A DNA stretch of 32,000 nucleotides, from contig CAVWXJ010000008.1 in the NCBI GenBank assembly GCA_963759195.1, positions 27,898 through 59,897 of the forward strand, in the 5' to 3' direction. This DNA is from an uncultured archaeon. GTDB lineage: Archaea; Thermoproteota; Nitrososphaeria; Nitrososphaerales; Gagatemarchaeaceae. Made by a program: the position numbers and the translations under genes. Each line of letters opens with the position of its first letter. The stretch's first letter is position 1. Shown in pieces: positions 1 to 27,162 of the stretch. The notes below the pieces were generated by a model, which was not told the origin of the DNA, ran no database searches, and saw nothing but the letters and a program-made list of their open reading frames with translations.

Positions 1-1
1 T

Positions 2-595
2 CCTGATGGGACTGCGGACGTGATAAGGGAAGAGATGTCGGGGGACGCATCGGTACACCTTCTTCTAAGAGGGAGCAAGCAAGGAATCGGTTCGGCCCAC
101 ATCGAAGGGTTCGCGGAGGCGATGAGGGAGTATGCGGCGGACGTCTTGGTCGAACTAGACGCGGACCTACAGCAGCCCCCTGAAAAGATCCCCGAACTTG
201 TCGCTTCTGTGAGGTCGGGCGCGGACGTCGCGGTCGCCTCCAGAAAAGTCACGGGAGGCGGAACTGTCGGCTGGAGTCTCTGGAGAAGGACGGTCAGTTC
301 GGGCGCTAACTTCTATGCCAGAGTGCTTCTGGGAATCCCAATAAGAGACTGCACTTCAGGGTTCAGGGCCCTCAGTAGGAACGCCGCTCAGGTTCTCGTC
401 GAAGGAAAGGTCCAAGCGTCCCAGTTCTACTTTCAGGTCGCTTCTCTGTACCTGCTCAAGAAACAAGGCATGAAGATGGTAGAGATTCCGTTCGTCTTCG
501 GCGAAAGACGGTCAGGAAGGTCAAAGCTCGGCTGGGGCGAAATTGTCGGGTTCTTCTTCGGCGTCCTCAGACTGCGCTTGTCGTCAATTGGCTAA
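2..595 (+). CDS. GT2 glycosyltransferase, dolichyl/polyprenyl-phosphate mannose synthase-like (5' end outside window)
   Basis: The frame is open from nt 2 (PDGTADVIRE precedes the first GTG at 20). Blocks LVELDADLQQPP, VASRKV.GGG..GWS..RR..S..AN.Y and IRDCTSGFRAL fit the Dpm1/GT2 family by recall. Confidence 0.8.
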   Translation, partial: PDGTADVIREEMSGDASVHLLLRGSKQGIGSAHIEGFAEAMREYAADVLVELDADLQQPPEKIPELVASVRSGADVAVASRKVTGGGTVGWSLWRRTVSSGANFYARVLLGIPIRDCTSGFRALSRNAAQVLVEGKVQASQFYFQVASLYLLKKQGMKMVEIPFVFGERRSGRSKLGWGEIVGFFFGVLRLRLSSIG

Positions 596-651
596 AGCGC
601 CTCACACATTGACGAAAGTTCTAAAGCCCAACGGAAAGGGCGGGCATCAGG

Positions 652-2634
652 TTGTCCGTCAACTGGGCGCTGCCATTCAGCGAACAGGTCCCGACTGACG
701 GATGGGAGACAGTCACACCGAAGAAGTACATCGCCTCCCACGAATCGAGTCTGGCACGGGGTCCTGAGTTCTGGTCAGCGGTGGCATCTGAGCTGGACTG
801 GTACAGGAAGTGGGACAAGACACTTGACGACAGCAGACCACCTTTCTACAAGTGGTTCGTCGGCGGCGAGCTGAACGCCAGTCATCTCTGCGTAGACAGA
901 CATGCAAAAGGCCCCCTGAGGAACAAGACCGCCATCCTGTGGGAAGGCGAACCCGTCGAGGGAGCGGTCCCTAAGGAGGTCAGGAAGGTAACCTACGGAG
1001 ACCTCTACAGGGATGTGAATCGGATGGCCTATCTTCTCAACCACAGGTATGGGATCAAGAAGGGAGACGCTATCGGACTCTACATGCCGATGGTCCCGGA
1101 GTTCCCGACCGTGATGCTGGCTGCGGCTCGGCTCGGAGCGCCCTTCACAGTCATCTTCTCGGGGTTCAGCGACGAAGCGCTGGCTGAGCGGCTCCAGGAC
1201 GCCGACGCAAAACTGCTTGTCACTGCGGACGGAGGATGGAGAAGGGGGAACGTCATCAAGCTCAAAGAGATTGCCGACGAAGCGATGGCCGAGGCCACCT
1301 GCGTCGAACATTCGCTTGTACTCCGGCGTGTGGGTAACGGGGTCAGCATGCGCCAGGGGCGGGACGAGTACCTCGACTCGGCCATGGACGGCGTCCCCAG
1401 TGACGCGGTGGTGGAGCCTATCAAAGTGAAGTCCGAGGATCCACTCTTCATACTCCACACCTCGGGGACAACTGGGAAGCCAAAGGGGCAGGTTCACGAC
1501 CTTGGCGGCTACCTCACCCTTCTCCACGCCACAATGAATTGGGTGTTCGACATCACTAAGGAAGACATCTACTGGTGTACCGCTGACATCGGCTGGGTGA
1601 CAGGCCACTCATACGTAGTGTTCGGGCCGCTGATGGAAGGCGCGACGACCGTGATGTACGAGGGAGCAATCGACTACCCCCACCCAGACCGATGGGTCTC
1701 CCTGATTGAGCGGCACAAGGTGAGCGTGCTCTACACTTCCCCAACCGCAATACGAGGATTCATGAAAATGGGCGAAGAGTGGGTGAAGAAGCATGATGTC
1801 TCCACCGTCAGGCTCATGCATTCGGTGGGGGAACCCATCAACCCTGCTGCGTTCAGGTGGATGCACAGAATGGTCGGCGGCGACAAGGTGCCCTTCGGAA
1901 GCACGTGGTGGATGACGGAGACCGGGGGAATAATGATCAGCATCACGCCGGGGGGAGAGATGATACCGATGAAACCGGGAACAAACGGCCTTCCCATCCC
2001 AGGCATCGATGCGGACGTGGTCGACGATTCTGGAAAGCCGTCGGCAGCGCTCGCCCGCGGATTCCTTGTGATCAAACGCCCTTGGCCGGGGATGCCGCTC
2101 ACAATACACAAGGACCCTGAGAGATACAGGCAGGTATACTGGAGTAGGTTTCCTGGCTGGTTTTACGCTGGCGACTACGCCGTAAAGGACAACGACGGCT
2201 ACTTCTGGATACTCGGCAGGGCCGACGAGGTGATCAAGGTAGCAGGCCACAGGCTGGGAACCTACGAGCTCGAGTCTGCGCTAGTCCATCACCCGGCGGT
2301 CGCCGAGGCTGCGGTCGTTGGCGTTCCCGACTCGGTCAAGGGAGAGGTTCCAGTCGGGTTTGTGATTCTTCGCTCCGGCAATCTGCCCAGCGACGGGGTA
2401 AGGGAAGAACTCAAAGCAAGAGTCCGCGAGCACGTAGGTCACATCGCCACCCTCAAGGAGGTCTACTTCGTATCCAAGCTGCCAAAGACCAGAAGCGCGA
2501 AGATAATGAGGAGAGTTGTGAAGGCTGTCGTTCAGGGCACCCCGGTGGGTGACGTCACAACCCTCGAGGACGAGGCGTCCGTGGACGAGGTCAAGCGTGC
2601 CTACGAAGAATTGAAGAAAGAGGTTTCCAGGTAA
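652..2634 (+). CDS. acs: Acetyl-CoA synthetase (AMP-forming)
   Basis: 660-aa ORF with a TTG start. YKWFVGGELNASHLCVDRH, HTSGTTGKPKG, WWMTETGG, YFWILGRADEVIKVAGHRLGTYELE and PKTRSAKIMRR are classical Acs/adenylate-forming motifs. Confidence 0.93.
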   Translation: MSVNWALPFSEQVPTDGWETVTPKKYIASHESSLARGPEFWSAVASELDWYRKWDKTLDDSRPPFYKWFVGGELNASHLCVDRHAKGPLRNKTAILWEGEPVEGAVPKEVRKVTYGDLYRDVNRMAYLLNHRYGIKKGDAIGLYMPMVPEFPTVMLAAARLGAPFTVIFSGFSDEALAERLQDADAKLLVTADGGWRRGNVIKLKEIADEAMAEATCVEHSLVLRRVGNGVSMRQGRDEYLDSAMDGVPSDAVVEPIKVKSEDPLFILHTSGTTGKPKGQVHDLGGYLTLLHATMNWVFDITKEDIYWCTADIGWVTGHSYVVFGPLMEGATTVMYEGAIDYPHPDRWVSLIERHKVSVLYTSPTAIRGFMKMGEEWVKKHDVSTVRLMHSVGEPINPAAFRWMHRMVGGDKVPFGSTWWMTETGGIMISITPGGEMIPMKPGTNGLPIPGIDADVVDDSGKPSAALARGFLVIKRPWPGMPLTIHKDPERYRQVYWSRFPGWFYAGDYAVKDNDGYFWILGRADEVIKVAGHRLGTYELESALVHHPAVAEAAVVGVPDSVKGEVPVGFVILRSGNLPSDGVREELKARVREHVGHIATLKEVYFVSKLPKTRSAKIMRRVVKAVVQGTPVGDVTTLEDEASVDEVKRAYEELKKEVSR

Positions 2635-2636
2635 GC

Positions 2637-3122
2637 AGAATAGAGGATATTGTAGATTGAAATATTGTAAGAGTGGTAGTGAGTGTTGGGTTAGGATTAG
2701 TGGAAAATAAGATGGTGTTTTTTTTTTAGTTAGTTGGGATAGGAATAGAGATTTGTTTAGTTATAGTGTGTTGTAAGTTTTATAAATTGGTTGGAAGTTA
2801 GAAGTCTGTCACTTAGTTTAATTTTTATGTTTGAGAGATTAGAGAGAGTACTAGATTAAGAGTTCTATGGGTTTAAGAAGGATGAGGATTAAATTGTAAG
2901 TGACATAGACATAGAGCTTCTCTCATTAAAAAACGAGAACAAGTACACTAAAGGTTTGGGGACTGAGATAAAAGAGCTTGTAAGTATACTAGATAGTGTG
3001 AAAGTGTATTTTGTAGTAATAGATAGTGTGGTATAAAAATGAGTATTTAAACATGGGCTAGGCTTATAAGATGAGAATAAGTATAGCAACATTAATATAC
3101 ACAATAGTATTAAAGTAAGGAT
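2637..3122. other. AT-rich, cytosine-depleted non-coding block (C-free on + strand 2637-2805)
   Basis: Direct reading finds no C between 2637 and 2805 and only about 13 C up to 2940. The block holds short internal direct repeats, TATA-like TATAAAAAT / TATTTAAAC at about 3032-3052, and no credible ORF. Confidence 0.9.
2718..2727 (+). terminator. Oligo-T tract (T10), candidate archaeal terminator for acs
   Basis: An uninterrupted T10 lies about 85 nt downstream of the acs stop. Archaeal RNAP terminates at oligo-T on the non-template strand. Confidence 0.35.
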
Positions 3123-4367
3123 ATGGATATAGAAAGAGAGAGGTGGGAAATGGACGCAGACGACTTCGAGGCGCTCTCGGAATACCTCGAAAAGAGACAC
3201 GAGGAGGAGCAGAGACTGATGAACCAATTCAACCTCAAAGCGACATTCGACGAGCGTGAGGCAAGAGGCGAGGCAATCGCCCATGAGTTCGGGTGGGTTC
3301 AACGCGTGGACGAGTTCTCTTACAGAGTTCACAGTCAGAAGCTGGACAAGGAATACCAAGTCCAGAAGACCGAGACGGGTTGGGTTTGTTCCTGCCCTGA
3401 TTCCACGTTTAGGCTTCTCAAGTGCAAGCACGTCTGGGCTGTCGAGATTAGCTGGACTCTGAGGGAGCAAGTCAAGGAGTCGGTTGTGATTCAGTCGGTT
3501 AGGGTAGATGCGTGCCTGTTCTGCGGTTCGGGTCGGCTCGTCAAGGACGGGATAAGACACAACAAGTCGGGCGACATTCAGAAGTTCGAGTGCCGAGACT
3601 GCGGGAGATACTTCACGGTCAACGTGGGCTTCGAGAGGATGAAGCACGACCCGAAGGCGATAACTGCGGCCATGCAGTTCTACTTCTCTGGGAGAGAGTT
3701 CGAGGAATACAGCGAGGGCGCTCAAGCTCATGGGGGCGGAGGTATTCACATAGAACTGTCCTCAACTGGATTGGAAAGTATGTCGCTCTCATGGATAAGT
3801 ATCTGGACAAGATTACCCCGCATGTCTCGAACACATGGAGGGCAGACGAGATGTTCGTCAAGGTGAAGGGAAACGTGAAGTGGCTGTTCGCCATGATGGA
3901 CGACGAGACTCGCTTCTGGATTGCTCAACAGGTCTCAGACACCAAATTCAACGCGGCAGTTAGGCCACTCTTCGCGGATGCCAAGCGGATAGCGGGGAAG
4001 CGGCCTCTGACCCTCATCACAGACGGAGGCCACCACTTCAATCAACCCTTCAAGAAGGAGTTCTATTCCAAGTATGCCCCGTTCTCCATCCATGTGAGGG
4101 ACATTCAGGCTCAGCGGCCAAGTCCACAACAACAAGATGGAGCGCATGAATGGGGAAATTCGAGACCGAGAGAAGGTCATGCGTGGTCTAAAGAACACCG
4201 ACACGCCCATCCTCAAGGGCATCCAGATTTACCACAACTTCATCCGACCCCATGAATCGCTGAACGGTCAGACACCCGCAGACAAAGCGGGAATCAGGGT
4301 CGAGGGGAAGGACAAGTGGCTGACTCTGATTCAGAACGCGAGCAAAGGCTCAAAGGCCAAACCATAG
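3123..4367 (+). pseudogene. IS6-family (IS240/IS26-type DDE) transposase with N-terminal SWIM zinc finger, disrupted by three +1 frameshifts
   Basis: The reading passes frame 0 (3123 to ~3692: CSCPD..CKH SWIM motif, C..C zinc ribbon, AITAAMQFYFSG), frame 1 (~3694-3744: ESSRNTARALKLMGAEV), frame 2 (~3746-4110: SHRTVLNWIGKYV, WRADEMFVKVKG, LFAMMDDETRFW, LITDGGHHFN) and frame 0 again (~4113-4367: NNKMERMNGEIRDREKV, YHNFIRPHESLNGQTPA). The HTH plus D..D..E layout parallels IS26. Confidence 0.8.
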
Positions 4368-4388
4368 ATACCCTCACGGGAGGAGTAA

Positions 4389-4649
4389 TTGAGTTCTGAA
4401 GAACGGCAGAAAAGGCTTGAGGCTTTGAATCGTTGGTGGAGGGTAGAGATTCCAAGAAGAATCGTTGGTGGTTGGATTGATGACAAGGACGATGATGTTT
4501 TCGAGGAAGTTGTGTATGCACTGATAGCGCAAGCCCAGAAGAGGTGGGGTGTGGCAATCACAACTGCGAGAGATTATGCAAGAGTGGTCTTTATCGCTAA
4601 TGAGGCTTACCTGAAGTCCGAACAAAAGAAGCATAGGAAGTCAGGATAG
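4389..4649 (+). CDS. Hypothetical 86-aa protein directly downstream of the IS transposase
   Basis: ORF with a TTG start and balanced, charged composition (EERQKRLEALNRWW...). I recognise no family. It could be an IS passenger or a host gene. Confidence 0.35.
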   Translation: MSSEERQKRLEALNRWWRVEIPRRIVGGWIDDKDDDVFEEVVYALIAQAQKRWGVAITTARDYARVVFIANEAYLKSEQKKHRKSG

Positions 4650-4773
4650 GCCGATTAGTTCATTCGCCCGACGAAAGTTTCCAATTCACCGAAAGAGGGA
4701 GAATCCGACAAAGACTTCCCAGAACCCTGAGACCAAAGATACAAATACGAGAGAAATCAGATTCTCGAAAGAA

Positions 4774-4977
4774 TTGTCAGAAACTCCTGCAGCACCCGCT
4801 GAGAAGCCTGCTGAGCCAGCCAAGGTCTTCGCCAGCGCAATCTATGAGTGTGTGAGGTGCGGGACAAGGACGACCCAGGAAGAGCTGTCACATCTCCCAG
4901 AAGTGAAGTGCATCTGCGGCTACCGCGTTTTCAGAAAGGCGCGGCCGCCCGTAGTGAAACAGATCAAGGCAGTCTAG
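4774..4977 (+). CDS. rpoP: DNA-directed RNA polymerase subunit P (Rpo12/RpoP) with N-terminal extension
   Basis: C-terminal 45 aa YECVRCGTRTTQEELSHLPEVKCICGYRVFRKARPPVVKQIKAV matches the archaeal RpoP zinc-ribbon pattern (Y.C..CG...L..LP.V.C..CGY.....R.P..K..KA). The only in-frame start is TTG. Confidence 0.8.
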   Translation: MSETPAAPAEKPAEPAKVFASAIYECVRCGTRTTQEELSHLPEVKCICGYRVFRKARPPVVKQIKAV

Positions 4978-9440: not shown

Positions 9441-9492
9441 GCCCCCATTTCCATGATCAGGGAAGAAAGCAATCCGGACGAGAGCGCAATCT

Positions 9493-9499
9493 CATATAT
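9493..9499 (+). promoter_or_regulatory. TATA-like box (CATATAT) upstream of glyS
   Basis: It lies about 27 nt upstream of the GTG at 9523, consistent with a near-leaderless archaeal transcript. Confidence 0.35.
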
Positions 9500-9522
9500 C
9501 CTCGCTCCTCGCAGGTCGGGGC

Positions 9523-10986
9523 GTGTCCTTCGAAGAAGTGATGCGGCTTGCTCAGCAGAAGGGGTTCTTCTTCAAGACCGCGGATTCATACCCCAATTCG
9601 CCAGCCGGCTTCTGGGACTACGGGCCATTGGGCGTTTCGATGAAGAACAAGTTCGTCGAACTCTGGCGCCGGATGGTGGTCAGGAGGGACGAAATGATCG
9701 AGATAGATGGCGCGCAGATTCTGCCCCGGGCGGTTTTCGAGGCGTCGGGGCATCTCGCAAGCTTCACCGACCCTTTCGTTCAATGCTCGAAGTGCGGCTC
9801 CGTCTTTAGGCCCGACAAGCTGATCGAAGAGAAGACCGGGCGTCAGACGCCGGAAAAGCTGGACGATGCAGAGTACGACAAGCTGATGGCCGAATCCGGT
9901 GTGAAGTGTCTAAAGTGCGGCTCCAAGCTTGAGGGCACGAAGCGGTTCAACATGATGTTCAAGGTCGAAGTGGGCGCACAGCACGAAGAAGCCTACCTTC
10001 GGCCCGAGACCTGCCAGTCGATTTTCGTGGACTTCCCATTGCTCTTCAAGACCCAGCGAATCAAGCTTCCGGTCGGCTTCGCACAAGTGGGACGAAGCTT
10101 CAGGAACGAGATTGCCCCTCGGCAGAGCTTGATCAGGATGCGGGAGCTCAACCAAGCAGAGGTCGAGGTTTTCTTCAACCCCAAGAAGACAGACATGGCA
10201 AAGTTTGGTGCGAAGGCTGGGGAAAGGTTGACTTTTCTGAAGACTGACGGAAGCACCACAGAAATGGCAGTCGCCGATGCGGTGAACGCGGGTGTCATAC
10301 CCAACATGCTGATTGGCTATTACCTCGCAATGATACAGGACCTTTACGTAGCGGCTGGATTGGAACCAGGCAAGATCAGGTTCAGGATGCTGTCCGACAA
10401 GGACAGGGCATTCTACTCCAAGGCCGCATACGACGTCGAGGTAAGCACCTCGCTTGGCTGGGTCGAACTCGTTGCATGCAACTACAGGAGCGACTACGAC
10501 CTTGGGCGGCACTCCAAGGTCAGCGGCACGAACTTCACCGTCGACGACGAAGGAGAAAAAGTTCTGCCTCACGTTTTCGAGCTTTCACTGGGCGTGGACA
10601 GGAGTATCTACGTAATCTTGGAGGCCTCCATGAAGACGGACGGAGACCGGAAGGTCCTCAAGCTGCAACCGTACCTCGCTCCGCTAAAGCTCGGTGTGTT
10701 CCCCCTGGTCAACAAAGACGGCCTCCCGGAGATGGCGGAGAAGGTCTTCAGGGAGGTCGCGGACGTGGTGGACGCGTTCTATGACGACTCCGGCTCAATA
10801 GGCAGGAGGTACGCGCGTTCGGATGAGGTTGGCGTACCCTACTGTGCCACGGTTGACCATGAATCCCTGACCGATTCTTCGGTGACTCTCAGGAACAGGG
10901 ACACCAAGGCGCAGGAGAGGGTGAAGATTCCTGAGCTGCAATCCCGTATCGTGGAACTGACCAAGTTCCCTTCGATATTCGGTTAG
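9523..10986 (+). CDS. glyS: Glycine--tRNA ligase (archaeal/eukaryotic class II type)
   Basis: 487 aa. GFFFKTADSYPNSPAGFWDYGPLG, FEASGHLASFTDPFVQC, RPETCQSIF and FAQVGRSFRNEIAPR match GlyRS motifs 1-3. Confidence 0.9.
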   Translation: MSFEEVMRLAQQKGFFFKTADSYPNSPAGFWDYGPLGVSMKNKFVELWRRMVVRRDEMIEIDGAQILPRAVFEASGHLASFTDPFVQCSKCGSVFRPDKLIEEKTGRQTPEKLDDAEYDKLMAESGVKCLKCGSKLEGTKRFNMMFKVEVGAQHEEAYLRPETCQSIFVDFPLLFKTQRIKLPVGFAQVGRSFRNEIAPRQSLIRMRELNQAEVEVFFNPKKTDMAKFGAKAGERLTFLKTDGSTTEMAVADAVNAGVIPNMLIGYYLAMIQDLYVAAGLEPGKIRFRMLSDKDRAFYSKAAYDVEVSTSLGWVELVACNYRSDYDLGRHSKVSGTNFTVDDEGEKVLPHVFELSLGVDRSIYVILEASMKTDGDRKVLKLQPYLAPLKLGVFPLVNKDGLPEMAEKVFREVADVVDAFYDDSGSIGRRYARSDEVGVPYCATVDHESLTDSSVTLRNRDTKAQERVKIPELQSRIVELTKFPSIFG

Positions 10987-11789
10987 ACCATCGCAGCGAC
11001 TGCGAGTGCCGCCAGAGATCCGAATATCGTGGCAAGGAGGTTCACAACGTTGTTCTCGATGAACGAGACTCCACCCGTCTTCTCGGTCGGCTCGCCGCAG
11101 TGGTGGAGCGCCTCTGTGGGTTTCATGCAGACCCTGCAGTAGCCCTTCCTCTGGAACGACGCGCCAAGGAGACTGTCGAAGACGGCTCCGCCCAGCCCGC
11201 CTGCGACGCAGACGAGAATCACGAGCAATGGGCTCTTCACGATACCCAGGAGGAAACCCATCACCCCGATGACGAGGGAGGCCAGAATCGCACCTCCGAA
11301 TCCCATTGCAGAAACCCCGCCCGAGGTGCCTGGGGGGACTGACCGCCTCGGGTGGGTGATCAGTTTTGGTAGGCTCTTGCTGAGCAGCCCCAGCTCGGTC
11401 GCAACTGTGTCAGCGGCAGCCGTCGAGATGCTCCCTAGGAACATGACTGCGAAGGCTGGATTGGGAGTGAGATAACCTGCCACTGCGAAAATCGAAGCGA
11501 CCCCACCGTTTGCAAGTATGTTGGGCCAGTTTCGCGCACCTCCTTTTTCCTGGGCCCCTCCCAGCTTTTTCTTGTACTCGTACTTGTACCAAGTGAAAGA
11601 GATACCGAGTGTGAAGAAGACCGCGACGATGACGAACCATCCAATCCCGCCTCCTAGAAGGATCGAGTAGCCTACAGCCACGCTGGCTAGGAAGCCCCTA
11701 CCATCGAGAGCTTTTGTGAATATTGCAGTGAGGGCGAAGGCGACAACCACGAAGAGGTCAATGACTATGGTAACTGTGCTCGGAAACAA
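10983..11789 (-). CDS. DUF92/TMEM19-family integral membrane protein (COG1836-like)
   Basis: 268-aa polytopic protein. GGARNWPNILANGGVA, the Gly-rich TM helices and the inserted Cys loop CRVCMKPTEALHHCGE fit the family by recall. Its stop codon overlaps the glyS stop. Confidence 0.6.
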   Translation of the reverse strand: MFPSTVTIVIDLFVVVAFALTAIFTKALDGRGFLASVAVGYSILLGGGIGWFVIVAVFFTLGISFTWYKYEYKKKLGGAQEKGGARNWPNILANGGVASIFAVAGYLTPNPAFAVMFLGSISTAAADTVATELGLLSKSLPKLITHPRRSVPPGTSGGVSAMGFGGAILASLVIGVMGFLLGIVKSPLLVILVCVAGGLGGAVFDSLLGASFQRKGYCRVCMKPTEALHHCGEPTEKTGGVSFIENNVVNLLATIFGSLAALAVAAMV

Positions 11790-11839
11790 TCCTCAGTCGC
11801 CCTTAGAGTTTCAGTAAAAAACCTTCGCCGGACTTCCGC

Positions 11840-12442
11840 CTACTGCTGCCGCCGCTCCTTCACCAATTCTAGCTCGAGTATGCCCTCGGAGAGCTTTCCG
11901 GCCTTCGCCGACCACGAGTAGGAATCCAGTATGCCCCGGATGAATTGCTCGGCGCACGCAGTCGACTCGGCCGAGAGCCCTAGGCCTATCGCCCTGAGCA
12001 TGAGATTCCCCCTCGCCTCTTGGTCCTCGACAGACCTGATCTCGATGCGCTTCAGCGGGAGCAATCCCTGAAACTCTATTGCAGCTTGGCTGAGCTTGGA
12101 AATGTCAGAGTAGCCCATCTGGAGGTAGTGCCCTGTCCTGGCCCCCTCGTCGAACCACGTCTTGAGCAGCCACGCCTTGTCTGCGGCGTACAGCTTCTTG
12201 ATGAGCTTCTCCACCAGGTCTCCTGGAAGGGGAACGGCGTCGATGTCCTTCAGCATCCTCCCCATCTTCCATGACGGAACAACTTCGCCCGGCTCTCCGG
12301 AGAGCTTGCAAATCGAAATGACCGCTTCGAGCGATTCGTTCGCGAATGCGTACAAAGTTTTGTTCTTTTTCATTGCCTGAACTGAAAGATCGTCAGCAAT
12401 GTTGTCTGCTATCGAGATGTTTGTTCTAGGCAACCGATTCAA
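11840..12442 (-). CDS. Hypothetical protein, possible N-terminal ribbon-helix-helix
   Basis: 200-aa ORF with a TTG start. The N-terminus RTNISIADNIADDLSVQAMKKNKTLYAFANESLEAVI looks CopG/RHH-like. I recognise nothing in the remainder. Confidence 0.55.
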   Translation of the reverse strand: MNRLPRTNISIADNIADDLSVQAMKKNKTLYAFANESLEAVISICKLSGEPGEVVPSWKMGRMLKDIDAVPLPGDLVEKLIKKLYAADKAWLLKTWFDEGARTGHYLQMGYSDISKLSQAAIEFQGLLPLKRIEIRSVEDQEARGNLMLRAIGLGLSAESTACAEQFIRGILDSYSWSAKAGKLSEGILELELVKERRQQ

Positions 12443-12518
12443 TATGTACGAGTGCAGTTAAAAGTGTTCAAACGTACGCGCGGGTTGATAGACTTCCCTC
12501 CAGCCTTACCAAACCACA

Positions 12519-13853
12519 TTGAGGTTCGAGCGAAGGCGCGGAATGACCACGACAGACGGCGCTCTCGCGATACTCACGGTATTTGTCGCAGGCACCCTTC
12601 TGCTCGCCGTGTACGAGTCGGAGAGCCTGCAAGGCCAGATCACCAGAATGGACCAGCTGGCGGGAAAGCAGGCCCAAGCGTCAACCACGGCTGGAGGTGG
12701 ATCCGGCACGTCCGGAACGCCAACCCAACCCGTCACTAGGGACATCAGGCTCTACAGCTACTCAAAAGTGGTGCCGATAGCGAATGGCGTGAACTACCTT
12801 GCATTCACATTCAACGGCACGGTCCCAGGGCCGACCATATTCATCAATCAGGGCGATACGGTGCACTTCACCCTCATCAACAACGACACCATGGCGCATT
12901 CCATCGACTTCCATGCGGCTGAGATCGATTGGTCCACGGCCTACGCTTCAATCCTGCCTGGTCAGAACAAGTCGTTCAGCTTCATTGCCAACTACCCGGG
13001 CGTATTCATGTATCACTGCGGGACGCCGCCCGTGCTTGAACACATAGCGAACGGGATGTACGGTGCAATCATAGTCCGGCCGTCTAATCCCCTGCCCGCA
13101 GCCCCCGGCGGCTCCTACGTCTTGGTGGAGAGTGAATTCTACACCTCAATGGGTCCGGGTGGAACCTACTTGGGCAACTACTCGAAGATGCTGAGCGCTA
13201 CGCCCGACTACGTGGTGTTCAACGGAGTGGCCAATCAGTACGCCAACAGCCCACTGGTGGTCCAGCCCAATCAGCTTGTCAGGCTCTACCTGTTGAACGC
13301 AGGCCCGTCCCTCTGGGAGGCGTTTCACGTGATCGGTGCCTTGATGGACACTGTCTATCAGGATGGGAACCCCGCGAACGTTCTCCACGGGATGCAGACT
13401 GTCAGCCTTGCGCCTTCTTCGGGCGCCATAGTTGACATGTACTTCACGGACCCAGGAGGAAAGAATCCCTTCGTTAACCATGCCTTTGCCTACGCATCGA
13501 TCGGGGCAACGGGAATCTTCCAGGTCGCGAACGGCAGCCAGAGCTCAACCACGTCAACAGCAGCCTCGGTGGCTGGCCCGGTCGTCACCATCAAGGCGGG
13601 GTCGGGGCTCAATCAGTCCTCGCCAGGTTACTCTCCCGCGACCATGACCGTGGTGGTTGGGGTGAACAACACTGTGACTTGGGTGAACAAGGACAGCATA
13701 ATCCACACGGTGACTGCGAGCGACAAGAGCTTCAACTCCGGTGACTTGTACCAGGGCGATAGCTTCACCTGGACATTCAAGACTCCTGGCACATACACGT
13801 ACTACTGCCTCTACCACCCGTGGATGAAGGGCACGATTATCGTGAAGGGGTAG
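12519..13853 (+). CDS. nirK: Copper-containing nitrite reductase (NirK-type two-domain multicopper oxidase) fused to a C-terminal plastocyanin-like cupredoxin
   Basis: HSIDFHAAE supplies T1/T2 His, and MYHCGTPPVLEHIANGMYG gives H-C-x8-H-x4-M. WEAFHVIGALMD and NHAFAYASIGATG also fit. The C-terminal domain IHTV...YYCLYHPWM carries the H/C/H/M type-1 Cu ligands. An N-terminal TM anchor and S/T/G-rich linkers are present. The true start may be the ATG at 12543. Confidence 0.8.
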   Translation: MRFERRRGMTTTDGALAILTVFVAGTLLLAVYESESLQGQITRMDQLAGKQAQASTTAGGGSGTSGTPTQPVTRDIRLYSYSKVVPIANGVNYLAFTFNGTVPGPTIFINQGDTVHFTLINNDTMAHSIDFHAAEIDWSTAYASILPGQNKSFSFIANYPGVFMYHCGTPPVLEHIANGMYGAIIVRPSNPLPAAPGGSYVLVESEFYTSMGPGGTYLGNYSKMLSATPDYVVFNGVANQYANSPLVVQPNQLVRLYLLNAGPSLWEAFHVIGALMDTVYQDGNPANVLHGMQTVSLAPSSGAIVDMYFTDPGGKNPFVNHAFAYASIGATGIFQVANGSQSSTTSTAASVAGPVVTIKAGSGLNQSSPGYSPATMTVVVGVNNTVTWVNKDSIIHTVTASDKSFNSGDLYQGDSFTWTFKTPGTYTYYCLYHPWMKGTIIVKG

Positions 13854-14324
13854 ATGATCCGAATGTCTTCGAATCCGGATTCTGGTGAGCCCGGTCTTAT
13901 TGATGAGAACGGGCTCGTTTCAAGGCGGAAGCTCGTCGTCCTTGGAGCCACAGCCTTGCTCGGGGGCATGATTGCCCTCGCTTTCAGCATCCCAAAGCTG
14001 TCCGAGTCGCGTGACAGTAAAGGGACCGAGGGGCAATCAGCTGGCCAAGCTAAGGTCCAGTCGACCAGCGATTTCGGGACCGTTCGTGTGAAGGCAGTCT
14101 ACTTCCAGATGGCTCAGACGGTTCCGGTGGACCATGAATACTACGACATCGCATCTCCAGCTACGGTAGCTGCACTCACGAAAATCGTCCAGTCGGAGTA
14201 CCCACAGCTCGCGAACATGATGCTGTCGATGTCGATACTCGTCGACGGGCAGGTAGCGACTGGCTCCACTCTCTTGCATCCAAGTGACGAGGTGGACTTC
14301 GTACCGATGTTGCAAGGGGGATAG
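13854..14324 (+). CDS. Twin-arginine/TM-anchored protein with C-terminal MoaD/ThiS-like beta-grasp domain ending in Gly-Gly
   Basis: The ATG directly abuts the nirK stop (TAGATG). The N-terminus SRRKLVVLGATALLGGMIALAF is Tat-like. The C-terminal 80 aa VRVKAVYF...TVAALTKIVQSEYPQL...ILVDGQVA...DEVDFVPMLQGG follow the MoaD/ThiS pattern. Confidence 0.6.
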   Translation: MIRMSSNPDSGEPGLIDENGLVSRRKLVVLGATALLGGMIALAFSIPKLSESRDSKGTEGQSAGQAKVQSTSDFGTVRVKAVYFQMAQTVPVDHEYYDIASPATVAALTKIVQSEYPQLANMMLSMSILVDGQVATGSTLLHPSDEVDFVPMLQGG

Positions 14325-26922: not shown

Positions 26923-27039
26923 GGCCCGTCCGCTCACTAGCCGACCCCTGCGATTTGTCCCGCGAGCCAGCATTTGTAGAGTAGGGACGGTGCACGGTTC
27001 ATCTATTGCTGATGCCGGTAGCCAGCTGTCCCCCTCTCC

Positions 27040-27073
27040 GAACCGAACGTGCATCTTTCGATGCATTCGGTTC
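27040..27073. other. Long near-perfect hairpin (14 bp, TTTC loop)
   Basis: GAACCGAA-CG-TGCATC [TTTC] GATGCA-TTCGGTTC, in intergenic DNA. Confidence 0.6.
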
Positions 27074-27162
27074 CCCATCGTCAGAACTTTTCAATCCACA
27101 ATTCTTACCGACAAATGGGTCGCTGGATATGCGTAAGTAGTACCCTGACTCAATTCTAGGCT

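Follow-up and report, generated by a model that had tools for sequence, protein, structure and literature searches.

A MoaD-fold protein family with twin-arginine-type N-termini, apparently undescribed, encoded beside archaeal nirK

The chemistry of ThiS, MoaD, the small archaeal modifier proteins (SAMPs), Urm1 and ubiquitin is understood as strictly cytoplasmic and needs an ATP-dependent E1 enzyme. What role may then be considered for a protein of this lineage that carries an export-type N-terminus and is encoded in direct contact with the gene of an extracytoplasmic copper nitrite reductase? The question is raised by a stretch of 32,000 nucleotides from an uncultured archaeon of the Nitrososphaerales, called the window in the following, where a gene of 156 codons, named here the beta-grasp gene, follows nirK (Table 1). 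A preliminary description, made from the sequence, had pointed out that this open reading frame (ORF) begins on the nucleotide next to the nirK stop codon, that its product starts with a twin-arginine-like motif, a hydrophobic stretch and a polar linker, and that the last ~80 residues follow the MoaD/ThiS/SAMP pattern with its terminal Gly-Gly. All of these features were recovered, and the N-terminal ones are conserved family-wide. They define a real and conserved family with an unexpected predicted cellular location, which apparently has not been described. Our reading, held with moderate confidence, is that the protein would be a MoaD-fold accessory of the outward-facing NirK-cupredoxin, exported through twin-arginine translocation (Tat) and possibly handling Cu(I), rather than a sulfur carrier for molybdenum cofactor (Moco) or thiamine synthesis.

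Fold, genomic linkage and N-terminus of the family

The assignment of the gene product to the five-stranded, MoaD-type beta-grasp fold is secure, profile searches, structure prediction and structural comparison all agreeing. Pfam ThiS (PF02597) matches residues 95-156 with 26.9 bits, a marginal score for a gathering cutoff of 22.5, and a precomputed Pfam match is absent from most members of the family. A profile built from 48 members matches the MoaD of P. furiosus (1vjk, 4.7e-12) and mycobacterial MoaD2 (6jbz, 1.2e-9). The AlphaFold2 (AF2) model, obtained with the 48-member alignment as input, has a predicted local distance difference test score (pLDDT) of ~95 across residues ~75-155, and also a helix at residues 24-43. 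When the model was compared with the PDB using Foldseek, the first match was MoaD 6jbz_B (TM-score TMt 0.87, root-mean-square deviation 1.7 Å, 84 columns), and further matches were the MoaD entries 6jc0, 5mpo, 1vjk and 2q5w, the TMt of the MoaD structures ranging from 0.79 to 0.87. SAMP1 (3po0, 4hro) is found within the top eight, SUMO and ubiquitin lower. The window protein belongs, by fold and by Pfam score, to the ThiS/MoaD superfamily. It would not be MoaD proper, however. Its scores stay far under the NCBIfam cutoffs (24.3 bits for 66.15 with moaD TIGR01682; 14 bits for 49.5 with archaeal MoaD TIGR01687), no gene for an E1 or for MoaE lies nearby, and its architecture is not that of a soluble cytoplasmic protein.

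The family was collected by an exhaustive HMMER search over 1.84 billion protein representatives, which retrieved 79 cluster representatives, all of at most 173 residues; a profile search provided an additional sub-family. A word-indexed search with the single protein returned only the window protein itself and one homologue at 47% identity, and an exact-sequence look-up of the window protein gave no record. The family clusters apart from ordinary MoaD, as only 3 of the 79 matches resemble ordinary short MoaDs. Nearly all members have 120-173 residues and four parts, namely an RR motif, a hydrophobic segment, a linker and a beta-grasp domain ending with GG. Homologues at 25-47% identity keep all of these parts, and the pattern is far beyond chance. 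Fusions of NirK with the beta-grasp domain were not found among the 79 representatives.

Conservation is concentrated in a few columns. In the alignment of 48 sequences, R25, M126, L141, G155 and G156 are invariant, and R24, Y83, M86, E95, P102, M122, G132, E146, D148 and P151 are conserved at 90% or more. Three of these 15 best-conserved columns are methionines (M86 and the pair M122-x3-M126), which align to R/A, V/T and V/C in the MoaD structures 1vjk and 6jbz. The beta-grasp domain averages 4.85% Met across the family; the window protein has M123 and M152 in addition, and no cysteine. The GG terminus is present in 118 of the 121 family sequences that were fetched. In source databases, members are labelled hypothetical, "molybdopterin converting factor small subunit" or "sulfur-carrier protein". 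The public gene calls of one Thaumarchaeota metagenome-assembled genome (MAG) omit the beta-grasp ORF altogether (locus L079, 6356..6945; its contig, PLCG01000068.1, is also that of L002, 6001..6447), which means that protein databases under-represent the family.

The association with nirK is conserved as well. Scans of GTDB genomes and of metagenomes of the Joint Genome Institute (JGI) gave 66 loci, and look-ups of distant members gave more. The alignment used for the scans was patterned on GDEVDFIP, so that the sampled loci are biased to members with that motif; distant sub-families were examined separately. Out of 75 loci, the window included, 58 are nirK-linked, for 12 the upstream DNA is too short, L007 proves to be an ordinary bacterial MoaD, and four are exceptions. 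Two of the exceptions are degenerate fragments (L027 and L060), and in a third one, L068, nirK is 0.9 kb off and divergently transcribed; the fourth is taken up below. At 58 of the 62 informative loci, a NirK-cupredoxin is therefore encoded directly upstream and on the same strand, and the two genes overlap or lie 0-66 nucleotides apart. The linkage also holds in distant sub-families at 25-33% identity. Where hosts are labelled, they are Thaumarchaeota/Nitrososphaerales MAGs; most loci are on unbinned metagenome contigs. The 1.4-kb contig of the 47% homologue (L001) has the gene order of the window, with the cupredoxin end of NirK, the beta-grasp gene, an 85-aa ORF and a reverse ORF of ~95 aa. 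In the window itself, the junction of the two genes reads TAG/ATG, with a gap of 0 nucleotides and both ORFs in one frame. This adjacency suggests that translation of the beta-grasp gene may be coupled to that of nirK. An alternative start, the ATG at 13863 (153 aa, P0001), is used in the gene calls of the source collection and fits equally well.

The gene neighbourhood was surveyed by clustering the ORFs of 74 loci, which form 58 non-redundant groups. The recurrent neighbours are NirK, an HTH_10 regulator, two hemerythrin families and a cupin. No E1, MoaE, JAMM or Tat component recurs in these 58 groups, and no E1, MoaE or JAMM gene is present within the 32 kb of the window.

The N-terminal region was assessed by explicit manual rules applied to the sequence. 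Tat substrates have the consensus S/T-R-R-x-F-L-K. In the window protein, S-R-R-K-L-V-V is followed by 21 uncharged residues, in agreement with the rule for a Tat-substrate motif, which calls for ~13 or more uncharged, moderately hydrophobic residues after the motif, close to the N-terminus; in the family, the motif is [AS]-R-R-x-[ALF]-[LI]-[RKI], with RR at median position 13 and a median uncharged run of 20 residues. The hydrophobic segment of the family is mildly hydrophobic and rich in Gly and Ala. In 82 of the 101 sequences of at least 120 residues, [RK]R precedes a run of 12 or more uncharged residues. The other 19 mostly begin within the hydrophobic region (h-region), as would be expected if the start had been mis-called or the contig truncated. 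The N-terminus of the family profile also matches, weakly (E 0.027), that of EfeB-type deferrochelatase/peroxidase, which we take to be a Tat substrate. An A-L-A/FS site is found in the window protein, and one sub-family has a lipobox-like IGGC.

A comparison with the NirK proteins of the same operons is instructive. The h-region of the family has a median Kyte-Doolittle (KD) hydropathy of 2.1 over 15 residues, as against 2.64 over 17 residues for the NirK anchor. Twin arginines do occur in 14 of 25 distinct NirK N-termini, but never in a Tat-like context. From this contrast, NirK looks inserted by the Sec pathway, whereas its partner carries a selected twin-arginine signal. The linkers of the family (33 residues on average; Ser 25%, Thr 11.5%, Ala 11%) resemble in composition the one found after the membrane anchor in NirK.

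Topology was approached by counting Lys and Arg (K+R) in the 15 residues before and after the hydrophobic run of 80 members. The means are 4.19 in the N-terminal flank and 1.73 in the C-terminal one; the N-terminal count is the higher in 73 members, equal in six and lower in one. Hence, a location of the beta-grasp domain outside the membrane, with the N-terminus in and the C-terminus out, is favoured from these sequence features, and the protein would be exported by the Tat system. The preliminary description had arrived at the same placement from the window protein; on the three counts by which it could have failed, namely fold, placement and linkage to nirK, it was not contradicted. At the level of the family this proposal is sustained by the charge bias, the Tat-like motif and the invariance of the second arginine; the window protein taken alone is indecisive.

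Proposed role at NirK and alternative explanations

The accessory role may be envisaged as follows. In soil Nitrososphaeria, the MoaD-fold protein would cross the cytoplasmic membrane by means of its N-terminal Tat-type signal and would then be either tethered by its N-terminal helix or released. The Ser/Thr-rich linker would keep the beta-grasp domain outside the membrane, where the protein would serve as an accessory of the membrane-anchored NirK-cupredoxin from the same operon. According to the general topology of beta-grasp domains, the beta1-beta2 loop, the start of beta3 and the end of beta5 lie at the base of the C-terminal tail, and the conserved methionines would cluster there. The face carrying M86 and M122-x3-M126 at the base of the flexible Gly-Gly tail would dock on NirK and/or bind Cu(I), and this would help to load or to stabilise an enzyme whose monomer needs three copper ions. 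Sites built from methionine alone are typical of extracytoplasmic Cu(I) carriers, and it is tempting to imagine that the three conserved methionines bind copper. A physical interaction of the protein with NirK may likewise be supposed. Export of NirK by Tat "hitch-hiking" on its beta-grasp partner was also considered; it is unlikely, as NirK possesses a strongly hydrophobic N-terminal anchor of its own.

Several observations weigh against this proposal. The flanks of the hydrophobic run of the window protein contain three K+R each and do not decide its orientation. The linkage is not reciprocal either. Five close relatives of the window NirK, 58-68% identical, were sampled, and at four of them (L075, L076, L077 and L078) the beta-grasp gene is absent within the fetched DNA. 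Conversely, at L010, an intact beta-grasp gene has no adjacent nirK. Across the 58 non-redundant groups, copper chaperones and transporters are not regular neighbours, and CopD occurs in one lineage only. Finally, the invariant terminal GG is not obviously needed for a docking or a copper role, and a terminal GG is the hallmark of E1-activated carriers. Concerning the missing genes at the four relatives, either the beta-grasp protein would be an accessory dispensable to NirK or its gene would lie elsewhere in those genomes.

Such a dispensability would also be consistent with a passive function, in which the protein is an extracytoplasmic tether or stabiliser devoid of copper or sulfur chemistry, for instance holding NirK trimers in place at the membrane or the S-layer. 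MoaD binds MoaE by insertion of its GG tail, and the GG of a passive tether could be kept in the same manner, by insertion of the tail into a pocket. This explanation shares the evidence on linkage and topology with the active accessory role proposed above; it leaves unexplained why a cofactor-less domain of 80 residues would have a Tat-type signal and three conserved methionines. We consider it unlikely, though it is given the highest probability among the alternatives.

The strict invariance of the GG (118 of 121 sequences) would be better explained if the tail were activated before export. The GG is usually lost once beta-grasp domains of ubiquitin-like (Ubl) families become mere adaptors. 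In this second alternative, a cytoplasmic E1 of the MoeB/UbaA type, encoded elsewhere, would adenylate and thiocarboxylate the GG, or conjugate it, and the modified, folded protein would then be exported by Tat to serve NirK, its thiocarboxylate or conjugate, once outside, for example binding Cu(I) as a soft sulfur ligand, donating sulfur or tagging the enzyme covalently. Tat transports proteins that are already folded. A Tat-type signal on the cofactor-less partner of 80 residues, with a Sec-type anchor on the copper enzyme, is indeed what would be expected if the partner had to be folded or loaded before export. In addition, a TusA/DsrE sulfur-relay cluster adjoins the gene in one lineage, and MoaD-MoeB fusions are reported to be common in Thaumarchaeota (PMC11237513), so that E1 enzymes do exist in the phylum. 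Against these arguments, conserved genes for an E1, a JAMM protein or a sulfurtransferase are lacking near the gene across the 58 groups, the TusA/DsrE neighbourhood is limited to one lineage, and the literature searched offered no precedent. We also know of no need of NirK for inorganic sulfur. Activation before export is the chief rival of the accessory role; its probability, a small one, is put somewhat below that of the passive tether. Its boldest form, a first ubiquitin-like or sulfur-carrier protein active outside the cytoplasm, in which an E1-activated, Tat-exported protein would deliver Cu(I), bound by its thiocarboxylate together with the three methionines, or would tag NirK covalently, has a slightly slimmer chance still.

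A third explanation stays within known biology. All characterised ThiS, MoaD and SAMP proteins are, to our knowledge, cytoplasmic. The protein might be tethered to the membrane yet face the cytoplasm (N-terminus out and C-terminus in, or not exported), as a conventional carrier or modifier of the MoaD/SAMP type standing beside nirK by chance. The balanced flank charges of the window protein would be compatible with this, as would the names "molybdopterin converting factor small subunit" and "sulfur-carrier protein" given to members in some sources. It is made improbable by the strong positive-inside bias of the family (73 of 80), by the RR placed directly N-terminal to the helix with its second Arg invariant, by Ser/Thr-rich linkers like that of the outward-facing NirK, by the low TIGR01682 and TIGR01687 scores and by the lack of MoaE or MoeB genes nearby, in the window as in the locus groups.

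Lastly, an annotation artefact, whereby the true start would be an internal GTG (V79, "...VKAVYFQM") located at the start of beta-strand 1, where canonical MoaD begins in the 1vjk alignment, so as to give an ordinary MoaD of ~78 residues after 75 untranslated codons, is effectively refuted, because drifting spacer DNA would not keep the RR motif, h-region and linker that are conserved as protein features at 25-47% identity, and at 58 loci the stop codon of NirK is followed by an uninterrupted frame.

The nirK locus and the rest of the window

The coordinates of the nirK locus are collected in Table 1.

Table 1. Features of the nirK locus; positions are those of the window.
Feature	Position	Strand	Remarks
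ORF of 200 aa, divergent from nirK	11840..12442	-	no Pfam match
NirK-like copper nitrite reductase, 444 aa	12519..13853	+	signal-anchor, Ser/Thr-rich linker, C-terminal cupredoxin fused
Beta-grasp protein gene, 156 aa + stop	13854..14324	+	abuts NirK stop, same frame
Twin-arginine motif S23-R24-R25-K26	13920..13931	+	R25 invariant, R24 conserved at 90% or more (48 members)
h-region/membrane helix L27-P47 (signal peptide or signal-anchor)	13932..13994	+	21 uncharged residues, mean KD 2.2
Polar low-complexity linker, residues 48-75	13995..14078	+	AF2 pLDDT ~56-60, no secondary structure
MoaD/ThiS-type beta-grasp domain, residues 76-156	14079..14321	+	Pfam, 1vjk profile match, AF2, Foldseek
Terminal Gly-Gly, G155-G156	14316..14321	+	protein end ...VDFVPMLQGG, then stop
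ORF of 85 aa	14410..14667	+	no Pfam match, no signal sequence; second small NirK-linked family
ORF of 91 aa	14688..14963	-	no Pfam match; 48% identity, same position, in L001 only

The window is a segment of an archaeal chromosome, encoding TATA-binding protein (TBP), Alba, CDC48, HerA and an archaeal-type glycyl-tRNA synthetase (GlyRS), as well as an acetyl-CoA synthetase with an HMG-CoA synthase/thiolase/OB-fold trio. Its NirK matches TIGR02376 with an E-value of 4.6e-55, at a score under the equivalog cutoff, Cupredoxin_1 with 9.7e-14, and Cu-oxidase_3 and Cu-oxidase_2. The closest solved structure is Geobacillus NirK (PDB 3x1e, 1e-62). The motifs for the type 1 (T1) and type 2 (T2) copper ligands, HSIDFH, YHCGTPPVLEHIANGM and FVNHAF, are intact in the sequence, and the copper ligand motif of the cupredoxin domain reads HTVT...YYCLYHPWM. 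The transmembrane (TM) core of this NirK has a KD value of 2.61. A scan for sigma-70 promoters and intrinsic terminators gave counts at background level and is uninformative for an archaeon.

Other small genes accompany nirK. Homologues of the 85-aa ORF follow the beta-grasp gene in L001. In L075, L077 and L078, where there is no beta-grasp gene, the 85-aa gene stands directly 3' of NirK; L076 has neither gene, and L079, on the same contig as L002, keeps the beta-grasp ORF. From this layout in the relatives, the beta-grasp gene of the window and of L001 would be an insertion between NirK and the 85-aa gene. The divergent 200-aa ORF is 68% identical to the divergent nirK neighbour in L075 and L077; in other lineages, its position is occupied by an HTH_10 regulator and a hemerythrin. 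This ORF may encode a regulator particular to the NirK sub-clade of the window.

Among the related loci, some lineage-specific neighbours of the gene might hint at function. L072 contains a sulfur-relay cluster of TusA, DsrE and Pyr_redox_2 (10551..12917). In L068 (5576..6070; 9459..9977), CopD is directly downstream, and a short Oxidored_molyb gene (sulfite-oxidase-like Moco domain) is present as well; such a short gene is also found in L027 (3039..3569). A bacterial host (Acidobacteriota) is suggested by the "Candidatus Acidoferrum/Acidoferrales" labels of L006, L072 and L073. It was rejected for L072 ("Acidoferrales") and L073, since the archaeal transcription factor TFIIB is encoded there; these loci are probably mis-binned. 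The matching NirK-beta-grasp locus suggests that the "Candidatus Acidoferrum" label of L006 is wrong too. In L075, from a close relative of the window organism, a type I CRISPR-Cas set (Cas3, Cas5, Cas7, Cas8-like and Cas6; 1..4841) adjoins the nirK locus.

Elsewhere in the window, Rfam RF00029 (3' end of a group II catalytic intron) matches 26976..27075 on the minus strand with 59.2 bits (E 2.2e-9), and no reverse-transcriptase ORF was recognised near it. An ORF-less group II intron, or a decayed one, may therefore be present in this archaeal chromosome. The GC content of the segment 2001..5000 is 0.49-0.51, compared with ~0.57, and its GC skew is strongly positive (up to 0.24). A 285-aa ORF at 2889..3749 (minus strand) has no Pfam match.

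Comparison with known systems

That an exported beta-grasp protein beside NirK is undescribed, as the preliminary description had supposed, agrees with the sources consulted. Literature searches gave nothing relevant on exported MoaD/ThiS proteins or on an association of NirK with MoaD, and a model dedicated to the family is lacking from both Pfam (2025 copy) and NCBIfam (2026). The family is easily overlooked, its members being annotated as hypothetical or "molybdopterin converting factor" and being left uncalled on at least one public MAG contig. Either it represents a new use of the scaffold, other than sulfur carriage, at an extracytoplasmic copper enzyme, or ubiquitin-like/sulfur-carrier chemistry would extend beyond the membrane. 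In both cases, a candidate accessory factor can be named for archaeal NirK, an enzyme that is central to the production of nitric oxide (NO) and nitrous oxide (N2O) by soil Nitrososphaeria.

The nearest known relatives are the MoaD and ThiS proteins (PF02597), with which the family shares the beta-grasp fold and a common C-terminus "...DGDEV.F.P..GG-COOH". The MoaD/ThiS/SAMP systems comprise soluble cytoplasmic proteins of ~65-100 residues with E1-like enzymes (MoeB, ThiF, UbaA) and partners such as MoaE and ThiG. The window protein departs from that pattern by its 156 residues, its conserved RR, its hydrophobic helix and its linker. Thus, in contrast with MoaD and ThiS, the family adds a twin-arginine signal or anchor and a Ser/Thr linker of ~33 residues, has its own conserved methionines, and is found in an operon with NirK instead of moaE, moeB or thiF. 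A beta-grasp fold with a terminal GG is also common to modifiers of the SAMP1/SAMP2/Urm1 type. SAMPs are cytoplasmic and UbaA-activated, and they are not known to have a signal peptide, a membrane segment or a link to nitrite reductase. A survey of archaeal Ubl proteins mentions no signal-peptide, transmembrane, secreted or extracellular form (PMC2948915). Secreted beta-grasp domains are known in SLBB, staphylokinase/superantigen and BofC proteins (PMC1949818). These belong to other beta-grasp superfamilies, no GG-ending protein of the ThiS/MoaD lineage being among them.

Functional parallels may be sought among exported carriers. SoxY, of the Sox system, is a periplasmic sulfur carrier with a flexible C-terminal GGCGG arm and a Tat-type signal. 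The likeness, drawn here as a comparison, is that of a small carrier acting outside the cytoplasm with a glycine-rich C-terminus and Tat-type export. However, SoxY has an immunoglobulin-like fold and holds its substrate on a cysteine, whereas the window protein is cysteine-free and not homologous. Closer to the copper role proposed here are CusF, CopC/PcoC and PCuAC, small exported Cu(I) chaperones with Met-rich motifs (e.g. MxxxM) that serve extracytoplasmic copper enzymes. Their folds, OB or cupredoxin-like, are unrelated to that of the window family, and the likeness is one of analogy.

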